64,000 nucleotides of DNA from Candidatus Nealsonbacteria bacterium (GTDB lineage Bacteria > Patescibacteriota > Minisyncoccia > Minisyncoccales > RBG-13-42-11): the NCBI GenBank assembly GCA_019923655.1, contig JAHXGL010000002.1:2933-66932 (forward strand). The letters are read 5' to 3'. This document shows, in pieces, positions 1,581-51,770 of the stretch. The number at the start of each line of letters is the position of its first letter. Within the stretch, counting starts at the first letter, position 1. The translations under genes and the position numbers were made by a program. The notes under the pieces were generated by a model. The model searched no databases. It had not been told where the DNA came from and saw only the letters and a program-made list of their open reading frames with translations.

Positions 1581-2811
1581 AACTGCCGGCTATTTTTCTT
1601 AATCTTTTTATTACTTTTGGTAAAACTTTTAAAAGGTAATCAATCTCTTTTTCAGTTGTCCACCTTCCCAAAGTAAGCCGCAAAGAACCATGAGCTTGTT
1701 CCGGTTTTATGCCAATTGCCAAAAGAACATGACTCGGCTCTAATTTTATTGAAGAACAGGCAGAGCCGGTTGAAGCGGCCACTCCCAGCAAATCAAGTTG
1801 AATAACTATTGACTCCCCCTCAACAAACTCAAACCAAAAATTAGCGTTATTTGGCAATCTTTTTTTTGGATGGCCGTTAAGCCGGCTGCCAATTATTTTT
1901 CCAAGAACTCCTTTTATCAGCTTATCTCTTAATTTTGCCTGCTTTATGTTCTCTTTCTCCATTTCTCTTTTACAAATCTTCACTGCTTTGGCAAAACCAA
2001 CAATAGCCGGAATGTTTACAGTAGAAGACCTTAATCCAAATTCCTGGCCGCCGCCGTGTAAAATCGGCTCAATTCTTGTCCCCTCTCTGATAAACAAACA
2101 AGCAACTCCTTTTGGCCCATACATTTTATGGGCAGAAGCTGACAATAAATCAATGTTCATTTTCTGGACATCAATAGGAATTTTTCCAAAACTTTGAACA
2201 GCGTCAGTATGAACGCAAACTCTTTTTTCTTTGCAAATCCTGCCAATTTCCGCAATCGGCTGAATAGTCCCGATTTCGTTTGAAGCGTGAATTATTGAAA
2301 CTAAAATAGTATTTTTCCTTATCGCTTTTTTAACATCTTTTGGATTAACCAAGCCATATCTATCAACCGACAACCGGGTTATTCTAAATCCTTGCCCTTC
2401 CAGCCACTTAGCCGACTCTATAATACAAGGATGTTCAATTTGAGAAATAATGATATGATTGCCTATTTTTTTATTGCCCAGAGCAATTCCTTTCAAAGCT
2501 AAATTATTGCTTTCTGTAGCGGAGCTGGTAAAAATTATTTCATTCGGCTTAGCTCCTATTAAATCAGCTATTACTCCCCTGCTTTCTTCTAAGGCTTGCT
2601 TAGCTTCCTGGCCAAAGCTATGGAGAGACATTGTGTTGCCGAATTTCTCTTCAAAATAAGGCAGTATCGCTTTATTTACTTGTGGATCAACAGGGGTAGT
2701 AGCAGCATAATCCAGGTAAATTCTTTTTTTGGCTCTATTCATTTTCATGCCTAATATTTGCTTTGCTTTTTCATAATTACCTCCATTTCTTGATCTACAA
2801 ATTTTCGCCAT
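1573..2811 (-). CDS. iscS: cysteine desulfurase (class V aminotransferase, IscS/NifS)
   Basis: PLP-lysine region SASAHKMYGPKG and C-terminal active-site cysteine loop (STGSACSS). Confidence 0.85.
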   Translation of the reverse strand: MAKICRSRNGGNYEKAKQILGMKMNRAKKRIYLDYAATTPVDPQVNKAILPYFEEKFGNTMSLHSFGQEAKQALEESRGVIADLIGAKPNEIIFTSSATESNNLALKGIALGNKKIGNHIIISQIEHPCIIESAKWLEGQGFRITRLSVDRYGLVNPKDVKKAIRKNTILVSIIHASNEIGTIQPIAEIGRICKEKRVCVHTDAVQSFGKIPIDVQKMNIDLLSASAHKMYGPKGVACLFIREGTRIEPILHGGGQEFGLRSSTVNIPAIVGFAKAVKICKREMEKENIKQAKLRDKLIKGVLGKIIGSRLNGHPKKRLPNNANFWFEFVEGESIVIQLDLLGVAASTGSACSSIKLEPSHVLLAIGIKPEQAHGSLRLTLGRWTTEKEIDYLLKVLPKVIKRLRKIAGSYE

Positions 2812-3530
2812 TTATCTTCTCCAAGAAATAAAGGATAGGGATATTCTTTATATGAATATTTTAATAATTCAAGGGCTAATCGCCGTTTTTCTAAAATTTC
2901 CACGCTAAATATTAAATTTTTATATGAGTCAACTAAATTAATTTTGGGAGCATATTGACGCATCCACTCAATTGATTTTCCAATTCTCTCGCTTTTGTAT
3001 TTAAGTATAACTGGCCACTTTTTAACTATATTCCCAATTTCTTCTTCGACTAAATAGTTTTTTAGGTTTTCCAAACGGTCATTAATTAGTTTAGAACTAT
3101 AGCTTATAATTCTTGGTTCGCTTATAACTAAACATTTGAACTCCTCTTCGGAAAAATTATACTTGTCTTTTAAGTTTTTTTCTAATCTCTCAAGATAATT
3201 ATTAAATGTCTCTGGTCTATACTTCAAAGTCTTTGGGTATTTTTCAACTATCTTTTTAATCTCTTTATTGGAAAAACGAGCTTTTAAGTTTTCCAAGCGG
3301 TCGCTTATTTTTTTTAGATCTTTTGGCGTCTTTCTTTCTTCAATATTTTTTTCAATAAATCCATTTTTAAGTCCATATTTTTTAACTATGGTTTTTATTG
3401 TTTCTATTTCGTTCAATTTTAATTCTAATGGACTTATCCTTGATTCTTTTCCATGTTTTGATTCTATTATTGGTTCTGATATTTCGAAGTCTTTATTTTC
3501 AAATGGATTTTCAGGTGACTTAAATGACAT
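2751..3530 (-). CDS. hypothetical protein with internal ~35-aa helical repeats
   Basis: ORF with repeated motif (e.g. IVEKYPKTLKY / IVKKWPVILKY, DRLENLK x2); no confident family assignment. Confidence 0.4.
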   Translation of the reverse strand: MSFKSPENPFENKDFEISEPIIESKHGKESRISPLELKLNEIETIKTIVKKYGLKNGFIEKNIEERKTPKDLKKISDRLENLKARFSNKEIKKIVEKYPKTLKYRPETFNNYLERLEKNLKDKYNFSEEEFKCLVISEPRIISYSSKLINDRLENLKNYLVEEEIGNIVKKWPVILKYKSERIGKSIEWMRQYAPKINLVDSYKNLIFSVEILEKRRLALELLKYSYKEYPYPLFLGEDKWRKFVDQEMEVIMKKQSKY

Positions 3531-8279: not shown

Positions 8280-8503
8280 AATTTTTCTTTTTCCAGCATT
8301 TCTCCTTCAATGTCTTGGGCTTCTTTTTTAATCTGAAGCCCGCTCTTTCTTAGTTTTTCTTTTCTGTTTTTAGTCTTAACTTTAGTCTTCCAAACCGAGC
8401 GCTCAACACTTTGAGTGCTTGGTTTGGAAACTTTAAGCGACTCGTTTGGTTTAATTTCAATTTTCGTTTCCAAATTCACATTCGTTTCCAAATCCGTTTC
8501 CAA
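8240..8503 (-). other. out-of-frame continuation of ftsZ carrying the conserved FtsZ C-terminal peptide (ETPAFLRRKK)
   Basis: 87-aa ORF overlapping the ftsZ 3' end in a different frame; ends with the FtsA/ZipA-binding consensus (D/E)-x-P-x-F-L-R-R/K. Confidence 0.45.
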
Positions 8504-8790
8504 ACCACGAAGGGGTTTGGAAACGCGGAGTCTTCCAAATCCATCGCGGATTTAGAAACTTTAGTCTTCCGAATCCCTTTGGGAGTGTTCCAAATCCCTT
8601 TGGGATTTGGAAACGAATTCGGAAACGCAGTCTTCTTTTTTTGCTTTATTGTTCCAAATCTGACAAGATTTGGAAAATTTATTTTTTCTCTTTTTCTCTT
8701 TTTCTTTTTTTGGTGCCCATCTTCCCTGTTTTCCAAGTCTTGAAGGGATTTTGAAACGGACTTGGAAACGGACTTGGAAATGGACTTTTC
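8385..8790. repeat. dense block of palindromic hairpin repeats (stem TTCCAAAYC / GRTTTGGAA), at least 8 tandem or nested copies
   Basis: direct sequence inspection; same unit recurs at 9745, 13906, 18851, 30004, 31210, 34801, 51397, 56403, 58645. Confidence 0.85.
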
Positions 8791-9804
8791 TAAACAACCA
8801 ATTGCTAATAAAAATACCTTGATACCCTTAGAAGGTTTCCGTTTCTGGGAAATTCCGAAAATAATTTTAGCTTCCGGATTAACTAATTCAGAAATGGCTT
8901 TTGATATCTGATTAACATCGGCAAGATAAAGATTTTTTTCTCCGGCAATATTAAACAAAACTCCTTTTGCTCCCTTAATTTTGTAGGAGTATAAAGGAGA
9001 ACTTAAAAGCCTTGCTATTAAATCTTTATCCGTTTGCGTTTTTGAACTTTCAACAGTATTCAAATAAACAAGCCTTCCCTGTCCTTCAAAAATCGTCTGA
9101 ATATCGGCAAAATCAATGTTAATTAAACCCGGATTATAGATAATTTCAATTAATCCCTTCAAATTTTCCGCTAAATTTTTATTAATAAAAGAGAAAGATT
9201 GTTTCAAAGACGTTTCTTTGTCAATGACCTGAAAAACTCTCTCGTTCGGAATAATAGTCATCGCGTTTAGATGTTTTTTTGCGTTAGATAAGGCATCTCG
9301 GCTAATTTCCATTTTTTTCTCCCCTTCAAACTTAAAGGGCAGGGTGAAAATGCCATAAGTAAGATTGCCTAAATTTTTAGAAATTTTGGCAAAAACCGGA
9401 GCGGCGCCGGAACCGACCCCGCCGCCCAAACAAGCGACAATAATACAAATATCCTGGCCAAGGCAAAGTTTTTTTATTCTCTCTTTTTCATTTTGAGCCG
9501 CCTCTCTTCCCTTTTCAGGATTCATACCTGTTCCTAGTCCGTTGGTAATGGCCTGTCCAAATTGAAAACAGCTTACCTTTTTAGAAATTGTTTTCAGAGC
9601 TTGAGCATCAGTATTAGCCGCCACAAAACAACTTTGTTTGATTTCAGAAGCAATTTCTGAAACAATCATTCCCGCTCCTCCGCCAATACCAATGACTTTA
9701 ATTTTAATTTTTTTAACCTTATCAATAGAACTTCCTTTTCCAGAGTCTTCCAAATTCGTTTCCGAATTCGTTTTCAAATTCGTTATGATTCTTTTTTTAC
9801 TCAT
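8476..9804 (-). CDS. ftsZ: cell division GTPase FtsZ (core domain; C-terminal tail replaced by repeat-derived sequence, apparently frameshifted)
   Basis: tubulin/FtsZ signatures NGLGTGMNPEKG and GGGVGSGAAPVFAKISK; N- and C-terminal extensions encoded by the palindromic repeat family. Confidence 0.85.
   Translation of the reverse strand: MSKKRIITNLKTNSETNLEDSGKGSSIDKVKKIKIKVIGIGGGAGMIVSEIASEIKQSCFVAANTDAQALKTISKKVSCFQFGQAITNGLGTGMNPEKGREAAQNEKERIKKLCLGQDICIIVACLGGGVGSGAAPVFAKISKNLGNLTYGIFTLPFKFEGEKKMEISRDALSNAKKHLNAMTIIPNERVFQVIDKETSLKQSFSFINKNLAENLKGLIEIIYNPGLINIDFADIQTIFEGQGRLVYLNTVESSKTQTDKDLIARLLSSPLYSYKIKGAKGVLFNIAGEKNLYLADVNQISKAISELVNPEAKIIFGISQKRKPSKGIKVFLLAIGCLEKSISKSVSKSVSKSLQDLENREDGHQKKKKRKREKINFPNLVRFGTIKQKKKTAFPNSFPNPKGIWNTPKGIRKTKVSKSAMDLEDSAFPNPFVVWKRIWKRM
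9745..9784. repeat. degenerate tandem half-sites of the hairpin repeat (TTCCAAATTCG x3) encoding the N-terminal extension of FtsZ
   Basis: sequence gtcttccaaattcgtttccgaattcgttttcaaattcgtt. Confidence 0.6.
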
Positions 9805-9878
9805 TAGTATAGTTTAATACTTTAAAGTTTTTAGTCAACTATCAGTTTTTCTTTTTCCATAGTTTTTGGAAAACACTC

Positions 9879-10970
9879 CTAGCCTTGGCTGGCTTTTTTG
9901 AGCCGGTGCATAATGGCAAAACCGATTCCTTTCTCGGGCACTCCTTCAGCTAAAATAATATCCACTTTTTGTTTGTCAAATTCTCGAAGAATTTTAAATA
10001 AGTTTTGAGCTATTTGTTCTAAATTTTTCCTTGAGCCAGAAATCAAAACCAAATCAGCTTGTTGATAAAATCTTTTTGTTTCAAATGAAGATAATACCCC
10101 CACTTTTTTATTTTGTTTTTGATATTTTTTAATTAAGTTTTGAATTCTTAATACTTGCTCCTTCCCTTCAACCCCGTTAGAGATACGCCCTTTTTGTACT
10201 TTGTCCCATTTTTTAGAATCTCTAATAGGGTTAACTAAAATTAAAGAAGCTTTTGGGGCATAATGACGATATTTCATTCCCGGGCTTTTGCTTTTTCCTT
10301 TGAATGTTCCGTCCAACAAACTGGGGTGAAGCCGAAGATCAGGTAAAACTTTCTTTAATTCTTCAAAAGAAATTCCGCCTGGCCTTAAAATTTGAAAAGG
10401 TTTGACCGTTAAATCCACTACTGTTGATTCTACTCCAATTTTAGTTCTGCCACCATCTAAAATTAAGTCAATTTTACTTCCAAAATCTTCAAAAACATGC
10501 CGGGCAAAAGTTGGACTGGGCCTACCGGCTAAATTAGCTGAAGGAGCGGCAATTGGAAAGCCTGCTTTTTTTATCATTTCCAAAGCAATTTTGTTTTTAG
10601 GCATTCTGATAGCGACCACTTTTAGTCCGGCTGTTACTTCATCCGGCACTGCGTTCTTTTTAAAAAGAACAAAAGTTAAGGGGCCTGGCCAGAATTTTTG
10701 AACTAAAATTTTTACATCTTTTGGAATATTTCTCGCCAGTAAATTTAAATCTTCAATCTTGGCTATGTGTACTATTATCGGATTATCCAGGGGTCGTCCT
10801 TTGACTTTGAAAATTTTCCTGACCGCGTTTTTATCTAAAGCATTGGCGCCCAAACCATAAACAGTTTCAGTCGGAAAAGCGACCAAGCCTCCTTTTTTTA
10901 TAATTTTGACCGCTTTTTGAATGAAACACTTTTCTGGCCTTTGAGAATTAATTTTCAATATTTCAAACAT
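9879..10970 (-). CDS. tsaC: L-threonylcarbamoyladenylate synthase (Sua5/YrdC/TsaC family, with Sua5 C-domain)
   Basis: YrdC motif AFPTETVYGLGANA; 363 aa consistent with YrdC plus Sua5 domain. Confidence 0.85.
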   Translation of the reverse strand: MFEILKINSQRPEKCFIQKAVKIIKKGGLVAFPTETVYGLGANALDKNAVRKIFKVKGRPLDNPIIVHIAKIEDLNLLARNIPKDVKILVQKFWPGPLTFVLFKKNAVPDEVTAGLKVVAIRMPKNKIALEMIKKAGFPIAAPSANLAGRPSPTFARHVFEDFGSKIDLILDGGRTKIGVESTVVDLTVKPFQILRPGGISFEELKKVLPDLRLHPSLLDGTFKGKSKSPGMKYRHYAPKASLILVNPIRDSKKWDKVQKGRISNGVEGKEQVLRIQNLIKKYQKQNKKVGVLSSFETKRFYQQADLVLISGSRKNLEQIAQNLFKILREFDKQKVDIILAEGVPEKGIGFAIMHRLKKASQG

Positions 10971-11011
10971 TTTCCTTGACTTGACGCAGAAATTTTGTAA
11001 TACTATGAAAG

Positions 11012-12238
11012 ATGGTTATTGGAAATATTATTATCTATTCCTCAATTTTCTTTTTTCTTTATATAAGCATATTGTCTCTTTTAGTATTGTGGGAATGCAA
11101 AAACCGAATTTATAAACCGAAATTAAGAAAAAATCATCCTAATGTCTGCATTATTGTTCCTTGCTTTAACGAGGAAAAAACAATTGTTAAAACTGTCCAT
11201 TCTTTGCTTAAATTAGATTACCCAAGAGACAGATTAGAAATACTTGTTATTGATGACGGTTCATCTGATAAGACTCTTGAAAGAGCAAAGACATTAGAAA
11301 AATATACACAGGTCAAGGTTTTTCATAAACCAAATAAAGGTAAATACACTGCCTTAAATTACGGCTTATCAAAAACCAAAGCTGAATTTGTCGGCTGTTT
11401 AGACGCTGATTCTTTTGTAATCCCTCAAGCATTAGGGCTTATTATGCCATATTTTAACAATCCCAAAATTATGGCATGCACTTCCTCTGTCAAAATTCAC
11501 CAGGCAAAAGGCGCGCTTCAGCGAATTCAAAAAATAGAATATATTTTTGGCATTTTCCTGCGAAAAGTCTTTGCCTTGCTCAACAGCATCACGGTCGCCC
11601 CTGGTCCTTTTACCATTTTCAGAAAAAGGGCCTTTGACAAATTAGGGCCATTTCGCCACGGACACAACACCGAAGATTTAGAAATAGCTTTCCGAATCCA
11701 GAGTAAAAACTATGAAATTGCCAATGCTCCGAATGCCTGTGTTTATACTGTTGGCCCGTCATCATTCAAAAAATTATTTCAACAGAGAAAAAGATGGTAT
11801 TCTGGATTATCCAGAAATGCCTGGGATTACCGTTCTCTAATGTTCAACAGAACATATGGAGATTTAGGGTTCTTTGTTTTTCCAAGCATATTTTTATCTG
11901 TCTTGATTTTTCTATTTGTTAGTTTTTATACTATTTTTCAATTTACCCAATACGCAATTCATAGATTTATTGCCTGGCAGGCAGTTGGGTTTAGTCTTAA
12001 CCAATTTGTTTTTAGGTTTGACTGGTTTTTTATTAATACTCAATTATATGTCCTTCTTTCTATTCTGCTTTTTGGAATGTTTTTCGGTATTGTTTTGCTT
12101 GGAAAAAAATTATCGTTTACCAAATCTAGAACCGGAAAAGATTTCCTGTTCTTTGTTCTATTTTATAGTCCGCTCTATTTTATCTGGTGGTTAAGCGCCA
12201 TTCAAGATATTGTCTTTAATAAAAAAAATAAATGGTAA
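11012..12238 (+). CDS. family 2 glycosyltransferase, processive (membrane-embedded, QxxRW motif)
   Basis: CFNEE...DDGSSD (DxD), QQRKRWYSG processivity motif, multiple C-terminal TM helices. Confidence 0.8.
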   Translation: MVIGNIIIYSSIFFFLYISILSLLVLWECKNRIYKPKLRKNHPNVCIIVPCFNEEKTIVKTVHSLLKLDYPRDRLEILVIDDGSSDKTLERAKTLEKYTQVKVFHKPNKGKYTALNYGLSKTKAEFVGCLDADSFVIPQALGLIMPYFNNPKIMACTSSVKIHQAKGALQRIQKIEYIFGIFLRKVFALLNSITVAPGPFTIFRKRAFDKLGPFRHGHNTEDLEIAFRIQSKNYEIANAPNACVYTVGPSSFKKLFQQRKRWYSGLSRNAWDYRSLMFNRTYGDLGFFVFPSIFLSVLIFLFVSFYTIFQFTQYAIHRFIAWQAVGFSLNQFVFRFDWFFINTQLYVLLSILLFGMFFGIVLLGKKLSFTKSRTGKDFLFFVLFYSPLYFIWWLSAIQDIVFNKKNKW

Positions 12239-12963
12239 ACAGAAAACCAATCAATACTCAAAAATACATTTTAACTTTTTGTTTCACGGCAATAATTTTT
12301 AGTCTTGGTTTTTTTGTAAGCGACTATCTTAATAATAAAAGATTTTCAGAAATAAACACTATGAAACAAAAATTTCAAATACAAGTTTTAGCTATGGAAA
12401 CCCAGCTTGATCATTTTAAGGATATTCTCTGCGCTGATATTGGCGACGATATTTTAACTCACGAACTTCATCTTATTGGCGAAAAGCTGGAATTTATGGC
12501 AAATAATTTAGGCCATAATCATCCTGAAGTGCTTCATCTAAAAAAATACTATTCTCTTCTTCAAATTAGGCACCACCATTTTTCGCAGCAACTTTGTGAG
12601 AGGTGCAATCTTGGGTTAGTTCATATTCTTTATTTTTTCGCGAATACTAAATATTGCCCTGATTGTGAAAAACAGAGCGCGGTTTTGTCTTTTTTGCGAG
12701 AACAATATCCTTTATTAAGGATATATTCTTTTGATTACAATCTTGATCTTATGGCTTTGGCTGCTATTAAGCCATTGCCTCCCAAATCCGCTCTTGAGCT
12801 TAACGGTCTTCCAAATTCTGAACAAGAATCTGAACTTAAATCTGACACAAAACCTTTAATTCAAGAATATGGCTTGCCTATTATTGTTGTTGAAGGCAAG
12901 CCCTTCTGGGGATTTAAAGATATTCAGGAAATGAAAAAAATCCTGCCGTTGACAAGGTTTTAA
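12232..12963 (+). CDS. hypothetical membrane-anchored protein with two CxxC pairs (CERC, CPDC)
   Basis: ORF overlapping the GT2 stop (likely co-transcribed); N-terminal TM helix; no confident homolog recognised. Confidence 0.4.
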   Translation: MVNRKPINTQKYILTFCFTAIIFSLGFFVSDYLNNKRFSEINTMKQKFQIQVLAMETQLDHFKDILCADIGDDILTHELHLIGEKLEFMANNLGHNHPEVLHLKKYYSLLQIRHHHFSQQLCERCNLGLVHILYFFANTKYCPDCEKQSAVLSFLREQYPLLRIYSFDYNLDLMALAAIKPLPPKSALELNGLPNSEQESELKSDTKPLIQEYGLPIIVVEGKPFWGFKDIQEMKKILPLTRF

Positions 12964-13646
12964 CGACTAATTTTTATTTTCTCCTTGCAATCCTCCCAGG
13001 GAACTTCTCCTTCCCCAACCAAAGAACAAATTTCTTTAAATTGGCAATATCGGCATTGCCAATTATCTACTAAATCCAAAATTTTGTCTGGCACAATATT
13101 GGAATCAATTTTAATTTTAAGTTGATTTAAATTATCTAAAAGGACTTGGGCTCGGCTTTTGTCATAAGGTATTATAAACTCTTTTAATTCCTGAGTGTCT
13201 TTATTAACATAAAGAAGAATGCCTTTGGAAATTTTAAAATAATGCAGGTAGAGCTGAATCTGGTCAATATTTTCTTCTTTTGCCTGTTCTAAGCTCTTAA
13301 AAATCATACTGTTCATACTCTTAATGTCAAGAAGGTACATTTCTTTGCTGTCGCTTACTATGGCGTCTGCCCTCCCAGAAATCAATTCCTGGGGCGGAAT
13401 AGCTATTTCTGAGGCAACAATATGAATTCCCCTGATACTCAGTAAAGGTCTCATAATCAACTGGTGGATATAATCACCATGTTCAAACATTCTTAAAATC
13501 CTCGCCTCCATTTCTTTCCTGGGGACATTTTTAAACTTGAAAAATATCGCCCGAGGACATTTACCGGCGTCAGTAATATAAAAATGTTGTTGCTCTTTAT
13601 CTTTTTGCCTGTCTAAATAAAATTTATCAATAAGTTCTTTTAGCAT
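12960..13646 (-). CDS. Cas4-like PD-(D/E)xK nuclease with Fe-S cluster cysteines (DUF83/RecB-family)
   Basis: one N-terminal Cys (CPRAIF), motif II D (DAIVSD), motif III DIK, QxxxY (QIQLYLHY), C-terminal CRYCQFKEIC (Cx2Cx5C). The ORF track's start at 13805 runs over a non-coding element, so the Met at 13646 is preferred. Confidence 0.7.
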   Translation of the reverse strand: MLKELIDKFYLDRQKDKEQQHFYITDAGKCPRAIFFKFKNVPRKEMEARILRMFEHGDYIHQLIMRPLLSIRGIHIVASEIAIPPQELISGRADAIVSDSKEMYLLDIKSMNSMIFKSLEQAKEENIDQIQLYLHYFKISKGILLYVNKDTQELKEFIIPYDKSRAQVLLDNLNQLKIKIDSNIVPDKILDLVDNWQCRYCQFKEICSLVGEGEVPWEDCKEKIKISR

Positions 13647-13658
13647 AGCTTCCTTATA

Positions 13659-13961
13659 GGAGTGTGAGATTCGAACCCACATTAGTTGAGCGGGAACAAT
13701 TTGAGTCATATTCAAGGCACGAGGAGTGAAGTGTGCCTTTAGGCACATAAGCGACGAGTAACGAAGAAGATGGCTCAAATTGACCCGCCCCAAGGGGAAG
13801 CTCAAAAATGGATGATTTCTTTGTTGCTCCTCCTCAAGGTGCTTGTCAGCACGATTTCGTTGTCGCGCCTTGAAATCATCTCATTTTTGAGCTTCTCAAT
13901 CTAAAGTTTCCAAATCCCTTTGGGATTTGGAAGACTGATGTGGGTTCGGATCTCACACTCC
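13659..13961. mobile_element. 303-bp element bounded by 24-bp terminal inverted repeats (GGAGTGTGAGATYCGAACCCACAT) that mimic a tRNA T-arm/acceptor; contains one hairpin-repeat copy
   Basis: left TIR 13659-13682 and right TIR 13938-13961 differ at one base (T/C, 23/24 identical when reverse-complemented); element lies exactly between the rpsI stop and the Cas4-like start. Confidence 0.45.
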
Positions 13962-13962
13962 T

Positions 13963-14397
13963 TTATCTTTTTGACCACTGGGGCGCTCGCCGAGCGCGCT
14001 TTAGACCAAATTTTTTCCTTTCTCTCATTCTGGGGTCTCTGGTTAGATAGCCGGCTTTTTTTAATGTTTTTCTGAAATCAAGATTAAAAATAGTCAAAGC
14101 CTTAGCCAATCCATGTCTTACTGCTTCAGCTTGAGCATTCAAACCGCCCCCTTTCGCCTTAACGAGAATATAAAATTTATCCAAACAATTTATTTTCTCA
14201 AGAGAAGAAAGGGCTGTTTGCTGAAGCTCAAAACAAGGGAAATAACTTTTCAAGGGCTTATCATTGACCAAATTTTCAAAACCAAGACCTTCAAAGAGTC
14301 GGACTCTGGCAACCGCTGTTTTTCTTCTGCCTACTGCTTCAAAATACTTTGTTGGTTTTTTTTTATCCTTGGTTTTTAAAATCCCCTTTTTTTTCAT
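13963..14397 (-). CDS. rpsI: 30S ribosomal protein S9
   Basis: C-terminal RRAPQWSKR and overall S9 similarity. Confidence 0.9.
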   Translation of the reverse strand: MKKKGILKTKDKKKPTKYFEAVGRRKTAVARVRLFEGLGFENLVNDKPLKSYFPCFELQQTALSSLEKINCLDKFYILVKAKGGGLNAQAEAVRHGLAKALTIFNLDFRKTLKKAGYLTRDPRMRERKKFGLKRARRAPQWSKR

Positions 14398-14398
14398 A

Positions 14399-14749
14399 CT
14401 ATCTTTCTATTTTTAATCTTTTAATTTGTTTTGCTCTTAATTTATTTTTAGGCAGCATTCCAAAAACCGCTTTTTTAAGAACCTCTGCCGGATTTTTCTC
14501 GTGCAGAATTTTAAGGGGTATCTCTTTTGAGCTGCCAAGATAACCCGAGTGCCTGAAGTATTTTTTTTGCTCTATTTTTTTGCCTGTGATTATTATCTTG
14601 GTAATGTTTTTTATAATCACATAATCAGCCATATCTTTATTGGGCGCAAAATCAGGCCGAAGCTTGCCTCGCAAAAGGACAGCAATCTCAGCAGCCAATC
14701 TACCCAACACTTTTTTGGTCGCATCAATTGTATGTGTATTTCTTTGCAT
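14399..14749 (-). CDS. rplM: 50S ribosomal protein L13
   Basis: IDATKKVLGRLAAEIAVLLRGK L13 signature. Confidence 0.9.
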   Translation of the reverse strand: MQRNTHTIDATKKVLGRLAAEIAVLLRGKLRPDFAPNKDMADYVIIKNITKIIITGKKIEQKKYFRHSGYLGSSKEIPLKILHEKNPAEVLKKAVFGMLPKNKLRAKQIKRLKIER

Positions 14750-17859: not shown

Positions 17860-19278
17860 TTAGTCAAGTTCAAACCTTAATTTAATTTCAATTTTGTCTA
17901 AATCTTCAGGCGCTCTATCCACCCAGAATGGCCAAAACTTTGGACTGGCTCTAATAATATCTGGCTTTGCTTCCAAAAAATCTTTAGTTTCATACAACGA
18001 CTTTCCCTTAACCGTATTTTCTAAAATCAGAATATTAATGTAGGGATAAATTTTTGCGGCAGCTTCCAAGGCAAGACTCATTTTACCCTGGTCCAAATCA
18101 AAGTCTGTTAAAGAATAATCTATTCTTAAACTCGGCTGATGAATTTGTTTGGTTTCAGGAATTTGGGTCTTAATAAATTCTATGGCAAAATCTTTTAAGT
18201 TTTGTTCTTTGAAAATTAAAGTTTTTGACTCAACTTTAACCTGAAAATTAAAATTTTCCATTTCCATTCCCGGCTTAGCCAAAGAAAAGGTTTCAATAAT
18301 TTCGGTCTGAATTGCCTGGTCAAAGAAAACAAACCCCATTTGCTCTTTGGTTTTTATTTTATTTTCAAAAAAAGCTCGGCTTTCTTTTTTCGCTCTTTCG
18401 CTCAAAATGTTTTTTGCTTTCTCTAAATCTTGTTCCGTCACCTGAATCATTTCTCTGGAAAAACCGCCTGTCATTGATTCAAAAGATTCAGCGTAAAAAT
18501 TAACAAAAAGCGGGGTTCCGACTAATCCCGGAATAGAGAAAGTAGAAGTCCCAATATTATGCCCCTCTCCCGGGACATCGGCAACTACCCTAACATCAAT
18601 ATGTCCGGGTATTATTTTTCCTCTTTCACGACTTTTGCCCGGAATAGTTATTCTGGTCGGCGTTCGGAACACTTTCCCTTCAGCTGATATAAAACGAGTT
18701 CTAGGGATAAAAGATTGAGAAGAAAATGAGTGTTTGTTAAAAACCCTTATTGTTCCTTCAGCTTTTCCCTGTTTTAGAACCTTGGCAGAAGCAGGAAAGA
18801 CATCAGCAACCGTTCTTTTTTCTCTAAAAATTTGGCCGGGAATAACCTTAGTCTTCCAAACCACGAAGGGGTTTGGAAACGAAGTCTTCCAAACCACGAA
18901 GGGATTTGGAAACGAAGTCTTCCAAACCTCTTCAGGTTTGGAAACTTTATTTTCAAAATCAAGTCCTTCTATGCCAATATCAATTTTTAATTCTGTGTTA
19001 AAAGTCTGAATTTCTGTTTTTGGCCAAACTTCTATTACTGCCTTAGGCAGAGTAAAAAAAGCAAGGGCTCCAAGCAAAACTAAAACTGATAATCCTAAAA
19101 TTAGCCATTTTTTATTAAACCCCTGCCTTGGTTTAGCTGTTTTTTTTTCTAAATCTTCTAAGATATTGGCTTCTTTGAAGGGTTTCAAACCCTTTTTGCG
19201 ATCTCGGACACCGGGTTCTAAAATTTGTTCGCGATTTGACGCACAAGGGGGAAAAATGTCAATTACTTTTTTAGTCAT
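17860..19278 (-). CDS. hypothetical membrane-anchored protein (single N-terminal TM) containing three in-frame hairpin-repeat units
   Basis: TM segment WLILGLSVLVLLGALAFF; WKTSFPNPFVV repeated (33-bp period = 11 codons); no family recognised. Confidence 0.5.
   Translation of the reverse strand: MTKKVIDIFPPCASNREQILEPGVRDRKKGLKPFKEANILEDLEKKTAKPRQGFNKKWLILGLSVLVLLGALAFFTLPKAVIEVWPKTEIQTFNTELKIDIGIEGLDFENKVSKPEEVWKTSFPNPFVVWKTSFPNPFVVWKTKVIPGQIFREKRTVADVFPASAKVLKQGKAEGTIRVFNKHSFSSQSFIPRTRFISAEGKVFRTPTRITIPGKSRERGKIIPGHIDVRVVADVPGEGHNIGTSTFSIPGLVGTPLFVNFYAESFESMTGGFSREMIQVTEQDLEKAKNILSERAKKESRAFFENKIKTKEQMGFVFFDQAIQTEIIETFSLAKPGMEMENFNFQVKVESKTLIFKEQNLKDFAIEFIKTQIPETKQIHQPSLRIDYSLTDFDLDQGKMSLALEAAAKIYPYINILILENTVKGKSLYETKDFLEAKPDIIRASPKFWPFWVDRAPEDLDKIEIKLRFELD
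18851..18945. repeat. three tandem hairpin-repeat units (33-bp period) inside a coding sequence
   Basis: gtcttccaaaccacgaaggggtttggaaacgaa x2 plus a variant copy. Confidence 0.85.
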
Positions 19279-46167: not shown

Positions 46168-46352
46168 ATCTATAATCTTTATGATTTTTGTTTTGACGCG
46201 GGATATAAAGCTTTTAACGATTATTAATTGCTAGCCAAAAAATTGCTGATGATTTATTAGTACTGCTCGGCTTAACCCATTACTGAGCTTACACCTACAG
46301 CCTATCAAGGTCGTCATCTTCGACCAATCTAAGAGTCCTAATCTTGGAGCCT

Positions 46353-46383
<31 letters not shown>

Positions 46384-46572
46384 AGTTCCCGACTTAGCTA
46401 CCCAGCAATGCTCCTGGCGGAACAGCTGGTACACCAGAGGTCGATTCAGCCTGATCCTCTCGTACAAAGGCCAACCCTCCTCAAGACTCAAACGCCTGCG
46501 GTAGATAGAGACCAACCTGTCTCACGACGGTTTGAACCCAGCTCACGTACCACTTTAATTGGCGAACAGCCA

Positions 46573-46615
<43 letters not shown>

Positions 46616-46622
46616 CACTAAA

Positions 46623-47518
46623 TTTCTATTATTACTAATAGCGTAGACTATACCTTTATCTAGAACATCCATTCTAGACACCAACGTTTTATAGTACTTA
46701 ACGCACTATCTTCATCCCGCGTAATGCGGAAATCTAGTCGTTACGGGGTCGCGAAAACCTATTTTATACATCATCGAAGGGATGATGTATGGACGTATGA
46801 CATTGGTTAATTTTTTCGTTTCTTCTTGGTTACAATACATCCTGTATCCTTTATCGCGATCGCGATAATATCGGATCTGAATGTTGAAAATGTTCTCGAA
46901 ACATTTTTGCAGAAAAATTATTTCTGGCAAAGAAAAAGAATAAGTGCTTATGTCAATTTTGCCTTTGGAATATGAACCGTCGTCCATAATCCAGACGGCT
47001 AAAGCGAAAGGGGTTAATTCTTTTCCGATTTCAAATGGAATAATCTTCCTTCCATTTTTATAACCTTCTCTCTTGTAGAATTTTTTGTAGATTTCAGTAA
47101 ACAACGGGTGTCTTATCGTTCTGAACCACCATGATTTTTCATATTTATTGCCTTTTTCATCATATCTGTAACTCATTTTAGGCTCAGTAAATACAAACGG
47201 TTTTAGTATTTGATATTTCCAATCAACATACTTTTTTTGAACTAACCCGTGATCTACTTTGAAATTGACATTTTGAGCTCCTTTGCCCAAACGCATCGTT
47301 CCATCGCCAAGAAGAGATCCAATGATTAATGATCTCTGTTTCGAATTTAACCTCAGAGATTTTTTAATCAGAATCCACTTTTTGTGCCAATGTTTATTTT
47401 CGCAACTTCCCACGGTGTTGACCATATATTTAGCTAATTATAGCAAATTTACTGGGTCTTTATAAATATATGGCTTTCTCCGTTATGAGTTGGTTTATCC
47501 TCGACATTCGGCTACTTT
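46623..47518 (-). mobile_element. group I intron (inferred) in 23S domain V, between CACCTCGAT and GTCGGCTC (E. coli ~2500 region), carrying a LAGLIDADG ORF
   Basis: exon sequence is contiguous with E. coli 23S when 46623-47518 is removed. Confidence 0.65.
46712..47425 (-). CDS. LAGLIDADG homing endonuclease (double-motif)
   Basis: motifs LIIGSLLGDGTM and LAVWIMDDGS. Confidence 0.85.
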   Translation of the reverse strand: MVNTVGSCENKHWHKKWILIKKSLRLNSKQRSLIIGSLLGDGTMRLGKGAQNVNFKVDHGLVQKKYVDWKYQILKPFVFTEPKMSYRYDEKGNKYEKSWWFRTIRHPLFTEIYKKFYKREGYKNGRKIIPFEIGKELTPFALAVWIMDDGSYSKGKIDISTYSFSLPEIIFLQKCFENIFNIQIRYYRDRDKGYRMYCNQEETKKLTNVIRPYIIPSMMYKIGFRDPVTTRFPHYAG

Positions 47519-47749
47519 ATCGAGGTGCCGAACAGGGCCGTTAATGTGAACTTGCAGGCCCTACCAGCCTGTTATCCCCGGGGTAGCTTTTATCTGATGA
47601 TCCTCCCCATTTCTATAAATAAGGGTCGGTTCACTAAGTTCTGGTTTCCCATCTGCGCGGCATATCCGCCTTGCAGTTAAGCCGGCTTATCCCTTTACAG
47701 GACCGCTCCGATTTCCATCCGGAGCTAGCCGACCTTATAAACGCCTCCA

Positions 47750-48406
47750 CTACTCTTTAGGCAATTCTGTTAACCTTAAAACTCTTGGAATTTTATATTT
47801 CATCGAAGAAATTATGTGTGGTTTTATCAATGCGATAAACTTTTCTCCAGATTTTCCTCCTAAATAAATTTGTTTTCCATTTTTCTCTTTTCTTGTTGTA
47901 CTGCTAATTCCGAATTTAACCTTCAATACCTCTTGAAGTCTTTTCACATCATCCTCTCTAAATCCTTGGGTGTTTAAAAATAAACCCTTGTGTTTTCTCG
48001 ATTTAATTGATCCGTCATCCATATACCAAATCGCTAATCCTAAAGGAGTAATATCCTTTTCTAAGTCATTCGGTATAATTTTCTTTCTTTTTCTGTAAAA
48101 TTTTTCTTGGAATTCTCCTAACAATCTATGACCATAAGTAATGAATCCATAATTCAGGTAAGTTTTATTCCAAACTTTCTTTCTCTTTGATTTTGGTTTA
48201 CTCCTTATCCAATTCCGAAATTCCTCATAAATCCAGTCAACATATTCTTTCTGTTTGTAGCTGTGTTCTACTTTTAATCTTCCTAGTATCGGTGTATACA
48301 ATCTTTCTAAATGACCATCTCCTAAAATCAAACCAATTAAGATTTCTTTTTGTCTTTGACTTAGAGAGAGTTTACTTTTATATTCTTCGATTTCTTTACT
48401 TCGCAT
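47750..48406 (-). CDS. LAGLIDADG homing endonuclease (double-motif)
   Basis: motifs LIGLILGDGHL and LAIWYMDDGS. Confidence 0.85.
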   Translation of the reverse strand: MRSKEIEEYKSKLSLSQRQKEILIGLILGDGHLERLYTPILGRLKVEHSYKQKEYVDWIYEEFRNWIRSKPKSKRKKVWNKTYLNYGFITYGHRLLGEFQEKFYRKRKKIIPNDLEKDITPLGLAIWYMDDGSIKSRKHKGLFLNTQGFREDDVKRLQEVLKVKFGISSTTRKEKNGKQIYLGGKSGEKFIALIKPHIISSMKYKIPRVLRLTELPKE

Positions 48407-48690
48407 AATTTCAGAGTTTAAGTTTCGGATTAGTTAGCGGGCACTAAAACTAACCTTGCCGAATCTTTAGGTCGCCCTAAAGTTCAGACTGTATCACTAC
48501 CCCTTGAAATAATTCTATATCTCAAAGGGACTCGACATACAGTCGTTGAGGGCATCCGCCTTTGGCGGGTTTCCCTGCTGATTGTCCGCACCAAAGAATT
48601 ATTACTTAATTTTATCAAAATTAAGTATCTTTGGATACTCGGATGTTCCAGCATATTAGTCGAGTTTGCTCTAAAGATTACTCTTTAGAG
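47751..48690 (-). mobile_element. second group I intron (inferred) in 23S, upstream of the CCTAAAGAGTA block, carrying a LAGLIDADG ORF
   Basis: exon blocks ...GTAGTTTAAGTGGGGC and GCCTAAAGAGTAGTGGAGG are separated by ~940 bp; boundaries approximate. Confidence 0.55.
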
Positions 48691-51396
48691 GCCCCATAAA
48701 TTAAGGCAAGTGCCCCACTTAAACTACCTACCAGACACTGTTTTTCGCCAATTAAGGCAAAGTTAGAACAAAGACCTTGAAAGACGGGTGTTTCATTGGC
48801 GTCCTGCTCTCAAAGAACAGAACTCCCCGCTACACTACACATTCAAAGCCAAAATTCAATATCTGGCTATAGTAAAGCTCCCGGGGTCTTTTCGTCTAGC
48901 CGCAGGTAACCGGCATCTTTACCGGTATTGCATTTTCACCGAGCTCCTCGTTGAGACAGTTCCCAAGTCGTTAAGCCTTTCATGCGGGCCGGAACTTACC
49001 CGGCAAGGGATTACGCTACTTTAAGACGGTTATAGTTACCGCCGACGTTCACTGGCGCTTCATTCAGTCAGCGCCAAACACATAAACTATGCGCTTGACA
49101 CCGCCAAATTTAACGTTCCAGCACTGGTCAGGCCTCAGCCCCTATACATCCTCTTACGAGTTAAGCAGGGACCTGTGTTTTTGATAAACAGTCGCCTGGG
49201 ATACTTTTGTTGCAGCCCAGCCTTGTGCAAAGCACAAGGTCAGGCAGTCCTTATTGCGAACTTACGGACACTTTTTTGCCGAGTTCCTTAACGAGGTTTC
49301 ACTCGTTCACCTTGGCACATTTACGCCTACCCACCTGTGTCGGTTTACGGTACGGACTAAACGCATAACTAACTCCTAAGAAGTTTTTCTGGGAAGCTTG
49401 CTCATTTGAGTTCATCCCACCGTAGCAGGACTTCCTGTTAGCCCTTGAAAAATCTCAAGCTAACAACAGAAATCCAATAATCTGCTCAAATTACTAAACT
49501 CCGTCACTCCTTAGAATTATGCGCTCAGGGGCCGGAATATTAACCGGCTGTCCATCATCCAGGCCATTCGGCCAAAGACTAAGGACCGCCTAACCCTTGG
49601 TTGATTGTCATTGCCAAGGAAACCTTAGGTTTTCGGTGTCCCGGGCTCTCACCGGGATTGCGGTTACTCATGCCAACATTCTCACTCCTTAGCGCTCCAC
49701 CAAACCTCACGGTTTGACTTCGCAGCACTAAAGACGCTCCCCTACCACCCATGAAATAAAAATATCTCACGGGTCCTTATCTTCGGTACTAAGCTTAGTC
49801 CCGGTAATCTTCGGCGCGAAATTCCTTAATTAGTAAGCTATTACGCACTTTTTAAAGGATAGCTGCTTCTAAGCTAACCTCCTAACTATCTTTGGAAATT
49901 CACTTCCTTAAAAACACTTAGCTCTTCGCAACCCTTTTAATAAAAGAGTTGGAACCTGCCTTTCAGCAGTAGTTTAGGGACCTTAGATAAAGATCTGGGC
50001 TGTTTCCCTTTTGACTATGGAGCTTAGCCCCCACAGTCTAACTCCCCGCCAAAATTTTTTCGCCATTCGGAGTTTGATTGGAAAGACTAGGCAAAGCCCA
50101 CGTAATTCCATTCAGTGCTCTACCTGCGAAAATTTAGGCGAAGGCTAGCCCTAAAGCTATTTCGGGGAGAACCAGCTATTACCAAGCTCGATTAGCTTTT
50201 CACTTCTTACCACAGCTCATCCCAGAGTATTGCACGGCTCACGGGTTCGGGCCTCCTCTCGACTTTCGTCGAGATTCACCCTGGCCATGGCAAGCTCGCT
50301 TGGCTTCGGGTTCTCTATTTCCAGTCTTCCTGATAAATCAGGGGTCGCGCTATTAACACTTGCTTTCGCTTTGCCTTCGCCCCAGAAGGGCTTAGACAAA
50401 CTGAAAATAAAGACTCGTTGGCTCGTTCTGCAAAAAGCACGTCATCACCCCGCCGAAGCGGAGCTCTGACTCTTTGTAGGCGTGATGGTTTCAGGTTCTA
50501 TTTCACCGCCCTTCCGGGCTACTTTTCACCTTTCCCTCACGGTACTGGTTCACTATCGGTGAGATTAAGTATTTAGCCTTGGCTGATAGTTCAGCCTGCT
50601 TCCTTCAAGGTTTTCATTCCTTGAAGTACTCAAGTATAACAGTTAGGAGCATGAAATCGTTTTCGCTTACAGGACTATTACCTTCTTTGGTCAGGCTTTC
50701 CATCCTTGTTTAGCTAACGAAATTTCATTTTGATAGACTCCTTTTGAAGCAAAAGCTCCAAAACACCATTAACTTACAACCCCCAGCCACACCTCGCTAC
50801 GCTCGGTATTCACTTAAACGTAAAGCGTAAAACGTAAAATGCAAAACAACAGTTCAAAATTCAAAACAAAATGTTTTAAGTTTTAGGTTGTTATTTTACG
50901 CTTTTCGCTTTTAGTTTTTCATTTAAGTTCGTACCAAGCGCAAAGAGGTATGGCTAGGTTTGGGCTATTCCCTTTTCGCTCGCCGCTACTAAGGGAATAT
51001 CCTTGTGCGGAGCACAAGGCTTGTTTTCTTTTCCTCCGCTTACTGAGATGTTTCACTTCAGCGGGTTCGCCGCCGCGCAGAGCGCGGCTTGCCGTGGTTT
51101 ACACGGCAGGGTTTCCCCATTCGGAAATCCCCGGATCAAAGGTTGGTAGCCACCTCCCCGAGGCTTATCGCAAGCACCCTACGTCCTTCATCGCCTTAAT
51201 CTCCCAAGGCATCCTCCATCCGCCCTTAAAATGCAATTTGGCATACCAATTTTGTAAAACAAAATTGATAAGTTTGGCTAGCAATTAATAATCGCTATGT
51301 TTACCCTGTTAAATAATTTGCTTCGCAAATTAAAAATCAAAGATTTTTATTTAATAGGGTGAATCCTGTTAAATAATTTTGCCTTCGGCAAAATTG

Positions 51397-51520
51397 CTCG
51401 GTTTGGAATACTTCGTTTCCAAACCAAGCATTCAAAGTGTTGAGTGCTCGGTTTGGAATACTTCGTTTCCAAACCAAGCATTCAAAGTGTTGAGTGCTCG
51501 GTTTGGAATACTGCGGAACA
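51397..51520. repeat. about 2.3 tandem copies of a 57-bp unit in the 23S leader, each containing a long-loop variant of the hairpin repeat
   Basis: gctcggtttggaatacttcgtttccaaaccaagcattcaaagtgttgagt repeated. Confidence 0.8.
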
Positions 51521-51770
51521 GCATTTAACAGGGTGAATTTTTAATGTTCTTTCCTTTCTCTGCTAATTATCAATTAATTGGTAATTAGCAGAAAAAAGAA
51601 AAATCGCTTTTAGAAAGCGATTTTTCAGAACATAAACAAAAATTCTGGAATTTAACCGCTTTCCTTCTTTAGAATGGTTTTATTTTTTCTCATGCTTAAT
51701 TTAGAAACGCGGGATTCAAACCAACATATCAGTCCAAACTCGCATTCTTAATATTAACAGAATAAAAATC

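Follow-up and report, generated by a model that had tools for sequence, protein, structure and literature searches.

A 64,000-nucleotide stretch of a Candidatus Nealsonbacteria genome (NCBI GenBank assembly GCA_019923655.1, contig JAHXGL010000002.1, positions 2,933 to 66,932 of the forward strand; the whole stretch analyzed is called the window here) carries, as the last gene of a ribosomal protein array, a gene for a solitary Cas4-like iron-sulfur (Fe-S) nuclease of the PD-(D/E)XK type. The nuclease is stably inherited in Nealsonbacteria-type Parcubacteria and is unrelated to CRISPR or to the miniature inverted-repeat transposable element (MITE) beside it. Its conserved positions were determined in an alignment of 35 homologues with identities down to 27% (alignment A2), and were compared with SSO0001 (PDB 4ic1), a Cas4-family protein of the archaeon Sulfolobus solfataricus. 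The gene and its parts are as follows.

12960–13646, minus strand: gene of the solo Cas4-like [4Fe-4S] PD-(D/E)XK nuclease, 228 amino acids (aa), with the stop codon at 12960–12962
13557–13559, minus strand: codon of Cys30, the predicted N-terminal Fe-S ligand (A2), which aligns with the CPR cysteine of SSO0001
13320–13367, minus strand: RecB-type motif II (GRAD94AI) to motif III (LD107IK109S), the predicted metal-binding catalytic core; D94 aligns with D99 of SSO0001
13248–13262, minus strand: Q129-x3-Y133 motif
13026–13055, minus strand: C198-x2-C201-x5-C207, the predicted C-terminal Fe-S ligand triad, which aligns with the CkyCifsviC segment of SSO0001
12963–13012, minus strand: clade-specific C-terminal tail G-x-G-E-x-x-W-x-x-[FC]-K-x-K-I, residues 212–228, with a predicted helix at 217–227

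The open reading frame (ORF) starts with an ATG at 13646, and its translation opens with MLKELIDKFY. A longer version of the frame with a TTG start at 13805, given in the ORF list, was rejected as an artefact, since the TTG extension enters the inserted element upstream and all homologues begin with MLKELIDKFY. The initial annotation had read the Cas4/DUF83 motif set in this ORF, and all of the motifs it listed are present and conserved in A2. Cys30, H61, and E80 are nearly invariant columns, D94 of motif II (GRADAI) and K109 of motif III (D107-x-K109, LDIKS) are invariant, with motif III as a whole invariant or nearly so, and the same alignment has Q129, Y133, C198, and C201 invariant and C207 nearly so. 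The four Fe-S ligand positions of Cas4, one N-terminal cysteine and the C-terminal Cx2Cx5C, are therefore all present. In the C-terminal tail, W217 is nearly invariant within the tight clade of close homologues, and the helix at 217–227 was modeled by AlphaFold2 with a predicted local distance difference test score (pLDDT) above 90. This tail is missing from homologues below about 45% identity as well as from SSO0001, and it may serve to bind a partner. The nuclease has no paralogue within the 64-kb window.

In profile searches, PF12705 (PDDEXK_1) matched residues 74–207 with 28.3 bits against a cut-off of 22, which makes the nuclease a member of that family. PF01930 (Cas_Cas4/DUF83) reached a borderline 19.9 bits, below its cut-off of 22.7, and the NCBIfam cas4 equivalog model TIGR00372 reached 42.2 bits, below its cut-off of 65. 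Matches were also obtained with the PADLOC Cas4 models (E 5e-14) and with PHROG 1706 and PHROG 1990, which represent phage Cas4-domain exonucleases (E 2.6e-30 and 3.3e-28, respectively). About 1,900 homologues were detectable, and the best 120 of them, each at least 69% identical, all came from metagenome bins of Nealsonbacteria, Paceibacterales, or "Parcubacteria." PF12705 was found in all of these 120 proteins, and a precomputed PF01930 hit in 75. The complete Nealsonbacteria genomes CP179887.1, CP179888.1, and OY969803.1 also contain the gene.

Among the solved structures, SSO0001 was the only strong sequence match, with an E value of 3.6e-8 for the single sequence and of 5.9e-20 with the family profile over the full length. 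Pcal_0546 was the next match by family profile (E 5.2e-9), and the profile search of solved structures gave no match to type I-C Cas4 or to Cas4-Cas1 fusions. An AlphaFold2 model built from the alignment had a pLDDT of 93.3 and a predicted template modeling (TM) score of 0.87, and Foldseek again ranked 4ic1 first in the PDB (E 6.5e-12, TM score 0.57–0.67). The next Foldseek matches, with E values of about 1e-7 to 1e-5, were a DinG-fused nuclease, MGME1, type I-C Cas4, ACE1, EXO5, and lambda exonuclease; several of these PD-(D/E)XK nucleases bear Fe-S clusters or are toroidal. Predicted models of phage Cas4-like proteins superposed on the nuclease model with TM scores of 0.73–0.79. Moreover, each metal or Fe-S ligand of SSO0001, namely H62, D99, E/D113, K115, and four cysteines (PMC13621843), has an aligned counterpart in the nuclease. 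Based on the profile, structure, and fold matches, the nuclease is therefore placed in the Cas4-like Fe-S nuclease lineage, on the border between the Pfam Cas4 and PDDEXK_1 models and closer to the solo and viral forms than to the Cas4 of CRISPR adaptation. The profile check suggested in the initial annotation thus had a divided outcome: Pfam assigns the protein formally to PDDEXK_1, just under the Cas4 cut-offs, while the lineage is the same and the nearest solved protein belongs to the Cas4 family.

The features that adjoin the nuclease gene are the following.

13658–13962, no strand assigned: 305-nt MITE-like insertion with 29-nt terminal inverted repeats (TIRs; AGGAGTGTGAGATYCGAACCCACATYAGT), between the rpsI stop codon and the ribosome-binding site of the nuclease gene
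13963–14397, minus strand: rpsI (ribosomal protein S9), the upstream neighbor; an ORF with Pfam Ribosomal_S9 in the relatives
14399–14749, minus strand: rplM (L13), an ORF and the next gene upstream in the rpoA-rplQ-rplM-rpsI-nuclease array
12232–12963, plus strand: convergent 243-aa ORF without a Pfam family, whose stop codon overlaps that of the nuclease gene and which follows the glycosyltransferase gene
11012–12238: family 2 glycosyltransferase (GT2) gene, convergent on the nuclease gene (Pfam E 7e-35)

This arrangement bears out the location described in the initial annotation, namely the distal end of the ribosomal operon (rpsI and rplM lie upstream on the same strand), beside a TIR-bounded element (the inverted repeats occupy the rpsI-nuclease spacer) and convergent with a GT2 operon (the GT2 gene and the 243-aa ORF). 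The 243-aa ORF is kept only in the closest relatives, L006, L091, and L092.

One genome per GTDB species was scanned, which yielded 125 nuclease loci; these were ranked by similarity to the nuclease, 80 were kept, and their neighboring genes were traced by tblastn with the window's own neighbors. S9 is encoded directly upstream of the nuclease on the same strand in 73 of the 80 species-representative loci, so that the conserved neighbor sought in the initial annotation does exist, and at least three of the seven remaining loci end at a contig boundary. The complete order RpoA-L17-L13-S9 precedes the nuclease in 66 loci. The gap between the S9 and nuclease genes is at most 20 nt in 21 species (often 4–20 nt), 21–150 nt in 29, 151–1300 nt in 21, and more than 1300 nt in two. 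Averaged over the 66 complete arrays, identity to the window was 66.5% for the nuclease, compared with 67.2% for RpoA, 66.4% for L13, 64.7% for L17, and 63.9% for S9. In a comparison with the 89%-identical relative L092, the nuclease had a ratio of non-synonymous to synonymous substitution rates (dN/dS) of 0.149, S9 one of 0.243, and L13 one of 0.158, and the nuclease gene differs from that of L091, which encodes an identical protein, by four synonymous and no non-synonymous changes. The nuclease is under strong purifying selection, and its rpsI synteny, its ribosomal-protein-level identity, and its dN/dS agree with the mostly vertical inheritance of solo-Cas4 proteins. It likewise has the Cas4 fold and motifs while lying outside cas loci and recognized mobile elements.

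The linkage to rpsI is specific to the tight nuclease clade. A homologue at 59% identity still has rpsI upstream, with a toxin-antitoxin pair in between, and one at 49% identity has no adjacent rpsI and keeps a downstream block of a membrane ORF, MreB, HolB, and Frr. Homologues at 35–46% identity occur in unrelated contexts, which are chromosomal in a "Woesearchaeota"-labeled bin and in Bipolaricaulota and resemble a mobile genetic element, with integrase and methylase, in one metagenomic contig. Downstream of the nuclease, L001, L002, and L113 carry a convergent membrane ORF of about 450 aa followed by MreB, HolB, and Frr; the window (8476–12963) and its closest relatives have the 243-aa ORF, GT2, Sua5, and FtsZ in place of this block, and a rearrangement breakpoint is therefore placed at the 3′ end of the nuclease gene in the window lineage.

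A single-protein scan of IMG/VR found no close phage relatives of the nuclease, and a scan of IMG/VR with the tight-clade alignment A4 gave a best homologue of 47% identity. This homologue sits at the end of an integrase-bearing contig, which would fit a host gene that borders a prophage. Homologues from cultured phages were 24–29% identical, with no close relative in INPHARED. The gene itself does not form part of a phage, a plasmid, or another kind of mobile element, while its protein does match the phage profiles.

No CRISPR array was detected in the 64-kb window by Tandem Repeats Finder, by a search for direct repeats spaced up to 120 nt apart, or by a k-mer spacing scan. No cas genes were found there either when all ORFs of at least 90–120 aa were read and the unclear ones were searched against Pfam; the window ORFs are housekeeping genes, such as those for ribosomal proteins, aminoacyl-tRNA synthetases, SecY, FtsZ, and pilus proteins. 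The Pfam-annotated flanks of the relatives also lacked cas genes, including cas1-cas2, so that the association with cas1/cas2 or a CRISPR array that marks a CRISPR Cas4 was absent from both the window and these flanks. The description of the gene as solitary therefore holds for the 64 kb, as does the assignment of the host to the candidate phyla radiation, since the relatives carry the names Nealsonbacteria, Paceibacterales, and Minisyncoccales and point to a Parcubacteria host. The only regularly spaced repeat of the window is a perfect 50-nt tandem at 51395–51544 (2.4 copies, 100% identical) without unique spacers. It sits just upstream of the 23S rRNA and includes an inverted form of the TTTGGAA/TTCCAAA hairpin described below.

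The MITE directly follows the stop codon of rpsI and precedes the native ribosome-binding site of the nuclease gene, AAGGAAG, and its inverted-repeat arms (13655–13686 and 13934–13965) are 91% complementary. The rpsI-nuclease spacer measures 316 nt in the window versus 13 nt in L006, an 88%-identical relative, and 16 nt in L091 (contig BBPE01000310.1), where the nuclease is identical and the MITE is absent. On the plus strand, TTAT borders the element at either end. L091 has ATAAGTATAA at the empty site, compared with ATAA[element]ATAA at the filled one, so that the flanks could represent a 4-bp duplication of the target or the footprint of an excision. A metagenome scan with the TIR matched only two contigs, L086 and L087, which hold a 92.5%-identical copy with the same terminus followed by an unrelated flank. 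The element has no notable ORF, and its RNA fold has a free energy of −143.6 kcal/mol (z = −11.4). It is a separate, recently mobile element and not part of the nuclease gene. Since the nuclease lies outside the element, the idea proposed in the initial annotation that the gene is mobile-element cargo fails, the more so as the element is missing next to the identical protein of L091 and the 88%-identical one of L006.

Two other origins were considered for the spacer sequence. Each TIR arm holds a hairpin resembling a tRNA T-arm (GTGGGTTCGAATCTCAC), and an origin from tRNA or tmRNA was rejected, as ARAGORN was negative for the window gap, the gaps of 25 relatives, and L086/L087. Rfam returned only sub-threshold noise for the element. 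The possibility that the spacer encodes a conserved structured RNA was likewise rejected; the gap sequences of the relatives are unrelated to the window MITE and mostly to each other, and the strong fold of the spacer is thus accounted for by the nested inverted repeats of the MITE.

The junction between rpsI and the nuclease gene also holds other insertions. Foreign cassettes gather there in different species, and the gap exceeds 150 nt in 23 of 73 loci. They comprise a DUF433 and PIN-like toxin-antitoxin pair (L114, 1026–1614), an N6_N4 methylase with a MutH-like nuclease and a trypsin-like protease (L083, 1695–4483), a tyrosine integrase with an HNH protein (L080, 22–1479), a DUF5674 pair (L038, 5014–5715), and the integrase-bearing IMG/VR contig that stops at the nuclease gene (L094, 3820–4731). 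The junction may be a lineage-specific integration hot spot.

Elsewhere in the window, eleven palindromic hairpins of about 25 nt with the form TTCCAAAYC-loop-GRTTTGGAA were found at positions 8498, 8588, 8652, 13908, 17430, 18854, 18887, 18920, 30008, 34803, and 56405, where none would be expected by chance. One lies inside the MITE, and several are in frame within coding sequences, for example at the 3′ end of the ftsZ ORF; in a 472-aa ORF (17860–19278), three tandem 33-nt hairpin units encode FPNPFVVWK repeats. The hairpin looks like a mini-repeat of the repetitive extragenic palindromic kind that tolerates or creates protein insertions. The 23S rRNA match (46250–51225) falls into three pieces, 46250–47830, 48708–48873, and 48931–51225, and the ORFs 46712–47425 and 47750–48406 in its interruptions show LAGLIDADG-like motifs by eye (LIGSLLGDG and WIMDDGS), so that they are probably intron-encoded homing endonucleases. 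A 259-aa ORF at 2751–3530 on the minus strand has an mTERF domain (Pfam E 1.8e-10), which is unusual in a bacterium; mTERF is known chiefly from organelles.

Taken with the functional data on SSO0001, these results make the processing of DNA ends, in recombinational repair or DNA turnover, the likeliest role of the nuclease, and we regard it as probable, though by no means assured. SSO0001 is a Cas4-family protein encoded away from CRISPR loci, and acts as an Mg-dependent 5′–3′ exonuclease on single-stranded DNA (ssDNA) that needs a free end; its D99A mutant is inactive (PMC3466216). The nuclease would be a vertically inherited solo Cas4-family enzyme whose genomic context suggests constitutive expression, and as the last gene of the rpoA-rplQ-rplM-rpsI operon it is probably co-transcribed. 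Constitutive co-expression with the core of transcription and translation would point to a housekeeping role. In the predicted protein, C30, C198, C201, and C207 would hold a [4Fe-4S] cluster, through which the N-terminal helix would be fastened to the C-terminal segment, as in SSO0001 and the Fe-S PD-(D/E)XK family, and H61, D94, D107, and K109 of the RecB-like PD-(D/E)XK core would bind Mg or Mn. By analogy with SSO0001, its closest characterized relative, the enzyme would then load on a free 5′ end and degrade ssDNA in the 5′ to 3′ direction in an Mg- or Mn-dependent manner, possibly as an oligomeric ring. In a small genome, this activity would serve to prepare DNA ends for repair by recombination or to turn over DNA in general.

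Several points weigh against this interpretation. Substrate and polarity may differ from those of SSO0001, because the only characterized solo-Cas4 of a mesophile, that of Methanosarcina mazei, prefers supercoiled double-stranded DNA and cleaves without its cluster (PMC12501428). No gene for a helicase, RecA, or single-strand annealing protein partner adjoins the nuclease gene. The operon position proves neither co-transcription nor essentiality, and in the window the highly structured 305-nt insertion lies between rpsI and the nuclease gene. In addition, the apparent conservation of the nuclease is somewhat inflated, because the 80 loci were picked by their similarity to it. A more far-reaching proposal is that Nealsonbacteria-type Parcubacteria have recruited the nuclease as a core and perhaps essential component, whose expression keeps pace with that of the translation apparatus and whose C-terminal helix docks it to a partner. 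In one version of this proposal, the nuclease may be the sole enzyme for DNA-end resection or ssDNA degradation, replacing RecBCD, AddAB, or RecJ, and in another it may be the entry point of nucleotide scavenging. We consider this core-component proposal conceivable but tentative, and on the unlikely side.

The nuclease could also serve nucleotide salvage by degrading ssDNA imported via competence or a type IV pilus, or DNA derived from a host, which would feed a cell without de novo nucleotide synthesis. Salvage is a close variant of DNA-end processing, and a presumably constitutive operon position and ribosomal-protein-like conservation would suit metabolic housekeeping. The window contains type IV pilus genes, identified by eye (PilB/PilT/PilC, pilin, and prepilin peptidase); SSO0001 first releases a short 5′-terminal oligonucleotide from ssDNA and shortens it from the 5′ end nucleotide by nucleotide (PMC3466216); and nucleotide recycling through DNA degradation has been suggested for Nealsonbacteria, but for their CRISPR-Cas system (bioRxiv 10.1101/2022.04.20.488981). 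However, in the loci read, the nuclease gene was not linked to genes for ComEC, pili, or nucleotide metabolism, and we hold salvage to be unlikely as a role in its own right, with the proviso that sequence data cannot separate it from repair. Less probable again is a stand-alone innate defense nuclease acting on phage or plasmid DNA, like the Argonaute-linked ACE1 or the solo-Cas4 proteins of DPANN that adjoin restriction-modification genes. Enzymes of the Cas4 family do act in defense (PMC12094033, PMC5704561), the PADLOC Cas4 profiles match, and cassettes with a methyltransferase and MutH-like nuclease (L083), a toxin-antitoxin pair (L114), or integrase elements (L080, L094) lie just upstream of the gene in some relatives. 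These cassettes are, however, heterogeneous and missing from most genomes, and thus provide no conserved partner; a fixed chromosomal position, conservation at the level of ribosomal proteins, and a low dN/dS are unlike typical defense genes, and the ACE1 structures fit poorly (TM score 0.33–0.37, sequence E > 0.6).

The place of the nuclease at the end of a ribosomal protein operon in 73 of 80 species would also suit an RNA-processing enzyme of ribosome biogenesis that trims, for example, rRNA or mRNA; the 23S rRNA of the window is interrupted, and SSO0001 slowly cleaves single-stranded RNA with Mn2+ (PMC3466216). We judge this very unlikely, as the characterized Fe-S PD-(D/E)XK relatives (Cas4, AddB, Exo5, MGME1, and Dna2-like proteins) are all DNA enzymes, and at 49% identity the protein is kept where the rpsI linkage is lost. 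Unrelated housekeeping genes often close ribosomal protein operons. A Cas4 acting in trans for a CRISPR-Cas locus elsewhere in the genome would explain the Cas4 signature, and some Nealsonbacteria do have type V-A systems with cas4-cas1-cas2 (bioRxiv 10.1101/2022.04.20.488981). This possibility is more improbable still, given the scores under the TIGR00372 and PF01930 cut-offs, a family profile without a sequence match to type I-C Cas4 or Cas4-Cas1 fusions, and the lack of cas genes in the 64 kb and in the annotated flanks of the relatives; CRISPR-Cas occurs in 2.4% of Parcubacteria (cited in bioRxiv 10.1101/2022.04.20.488981), whereas the nuclease is found in at least 125 species representatives. 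The least credible explanation is that the gene is MITE cargo, or a phage-derived anti-defense gene or toxin. A TIR element does abut the gene, the strongest profile matches are the two phage families, whose models superpose well, and a 42%-identical homologue lies in an integrase and methyltransferase context. Nevertheless, the 305-nt element is non-coding and excludes the nuclease from its TIRs, the viral homologues are distant in both the cultured-phage and IMG/VR sets, and the synteny and selection data also contradict it; a gene fixed after rpsI and evolving as slowly as the adjacent ribosomal protein genes does not behave as the anti-defense gene or toxin suggested in the initial annotation. 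From the functions listed there, recombination or repair alone stays plausible, while cargo, anti-defense, and toxin roles are unsupported.

DNA-end processing thus remains the preferred role. As it stands, the nuclease is another solo-Cas4, from a class already known to be common in candidate phyla radiation genomes without CRISPR-Cas, and in that respect it matters little; it should not be taken as a sign of CRISPR, phage cargo, or anti-defense. The additions made here are modest and consist of the near-universal place after rpoA-rplQ-rplM-rpsI, with conservation like that of ribosomal proteins, and of the clade-specific C-terminal helix. The placement and conservation are the clearest available hint that, in this lineage, the protein is a housekeeping DNA enzyme and not an arms-race gene, which bears on what solo-Cas4 proteins do. 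The clade also supplies many orthologues for biochemistry.

Among the known systems, the CRISPR-associated Cas4 proteins (type I-C, 8D3L; Cas4-Cas1, 7MI4) share the fold and the Fe-S and RecB motifs (Foldseek E 1e-6 to 1e-5), but the nuclease scores below both curated cut-offs, has no cas1, cas2, or CRISPR nearby, and gives no profile sequence match to them. The Cas4-like exonucleases of phages and archaeal viruses (PHROG 1706 and 1990; the pfam12705 group) provide the best profile and model-to-model matches and have the same size and motifs. The phage genes lie in replication and recombination modules, whereas the nuclease is chromosomally fixed in at least 73 species and only 24–29% identical. 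The M. mazei protein is, like the nuclease, a solo Cas4-family Fe-S nuclease; it comes from a mesophile, forms a high oligomer, is not induced by virus, and was reported without a RecB motif, unlike the nuclease (PMC12501428). The nuclease domains of AddB and AdnAB (3U44, 6PPR) are Fe-S-stapled RecB-type domains that resect DNA ends, and thus offer a functional analogy for the proposed role. They matched only marginally (profile E 0.22; Foldseek E 3e-3 for 3u44_A, the AddA chain), and they belong to helicase-nuclease subunits of 1100 residues, whereas the nuclease has no fused or adjacent helicase.

The solo-Cas4 class was described as over-represented in genomes from the candidate phyla radiation (Parcubacteria and others) and DPANN without CRISPR-Cas, with mainly vertical evolution, selection near the genomic median, and a proposed role in repair or an uncharacterized form of defense; its pfam12705-type Cas4-like proteins were not CRISPR-associated (Hudaiberdiev 2017, PMC5704561). 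A linkage to a ribosomal operon is not mentioned in that study, in which the word "ribosomal" occurs 0 times, whereas in its position outside cas loci, its small host genome, its vertical inheritance, and its purifying selection the nuclease agrees with the class. SSO0001 differs in its identity of only 22–24%, its archaeal and thermophilic source, and its lack of the clade-specific C-terminal helix, and the nuclease differs from it in its ribosomal protein operon setting. SSO0001, which forms a toroidal decamer, is nonetheless matched by the nuclease over the full length in both sequence and fold, with a similar size (206 aa versus 228 aa) and with the four cysteines, the H/D/D(E)/K metal site, and the QxxxY motif in common, and it is also solitary.

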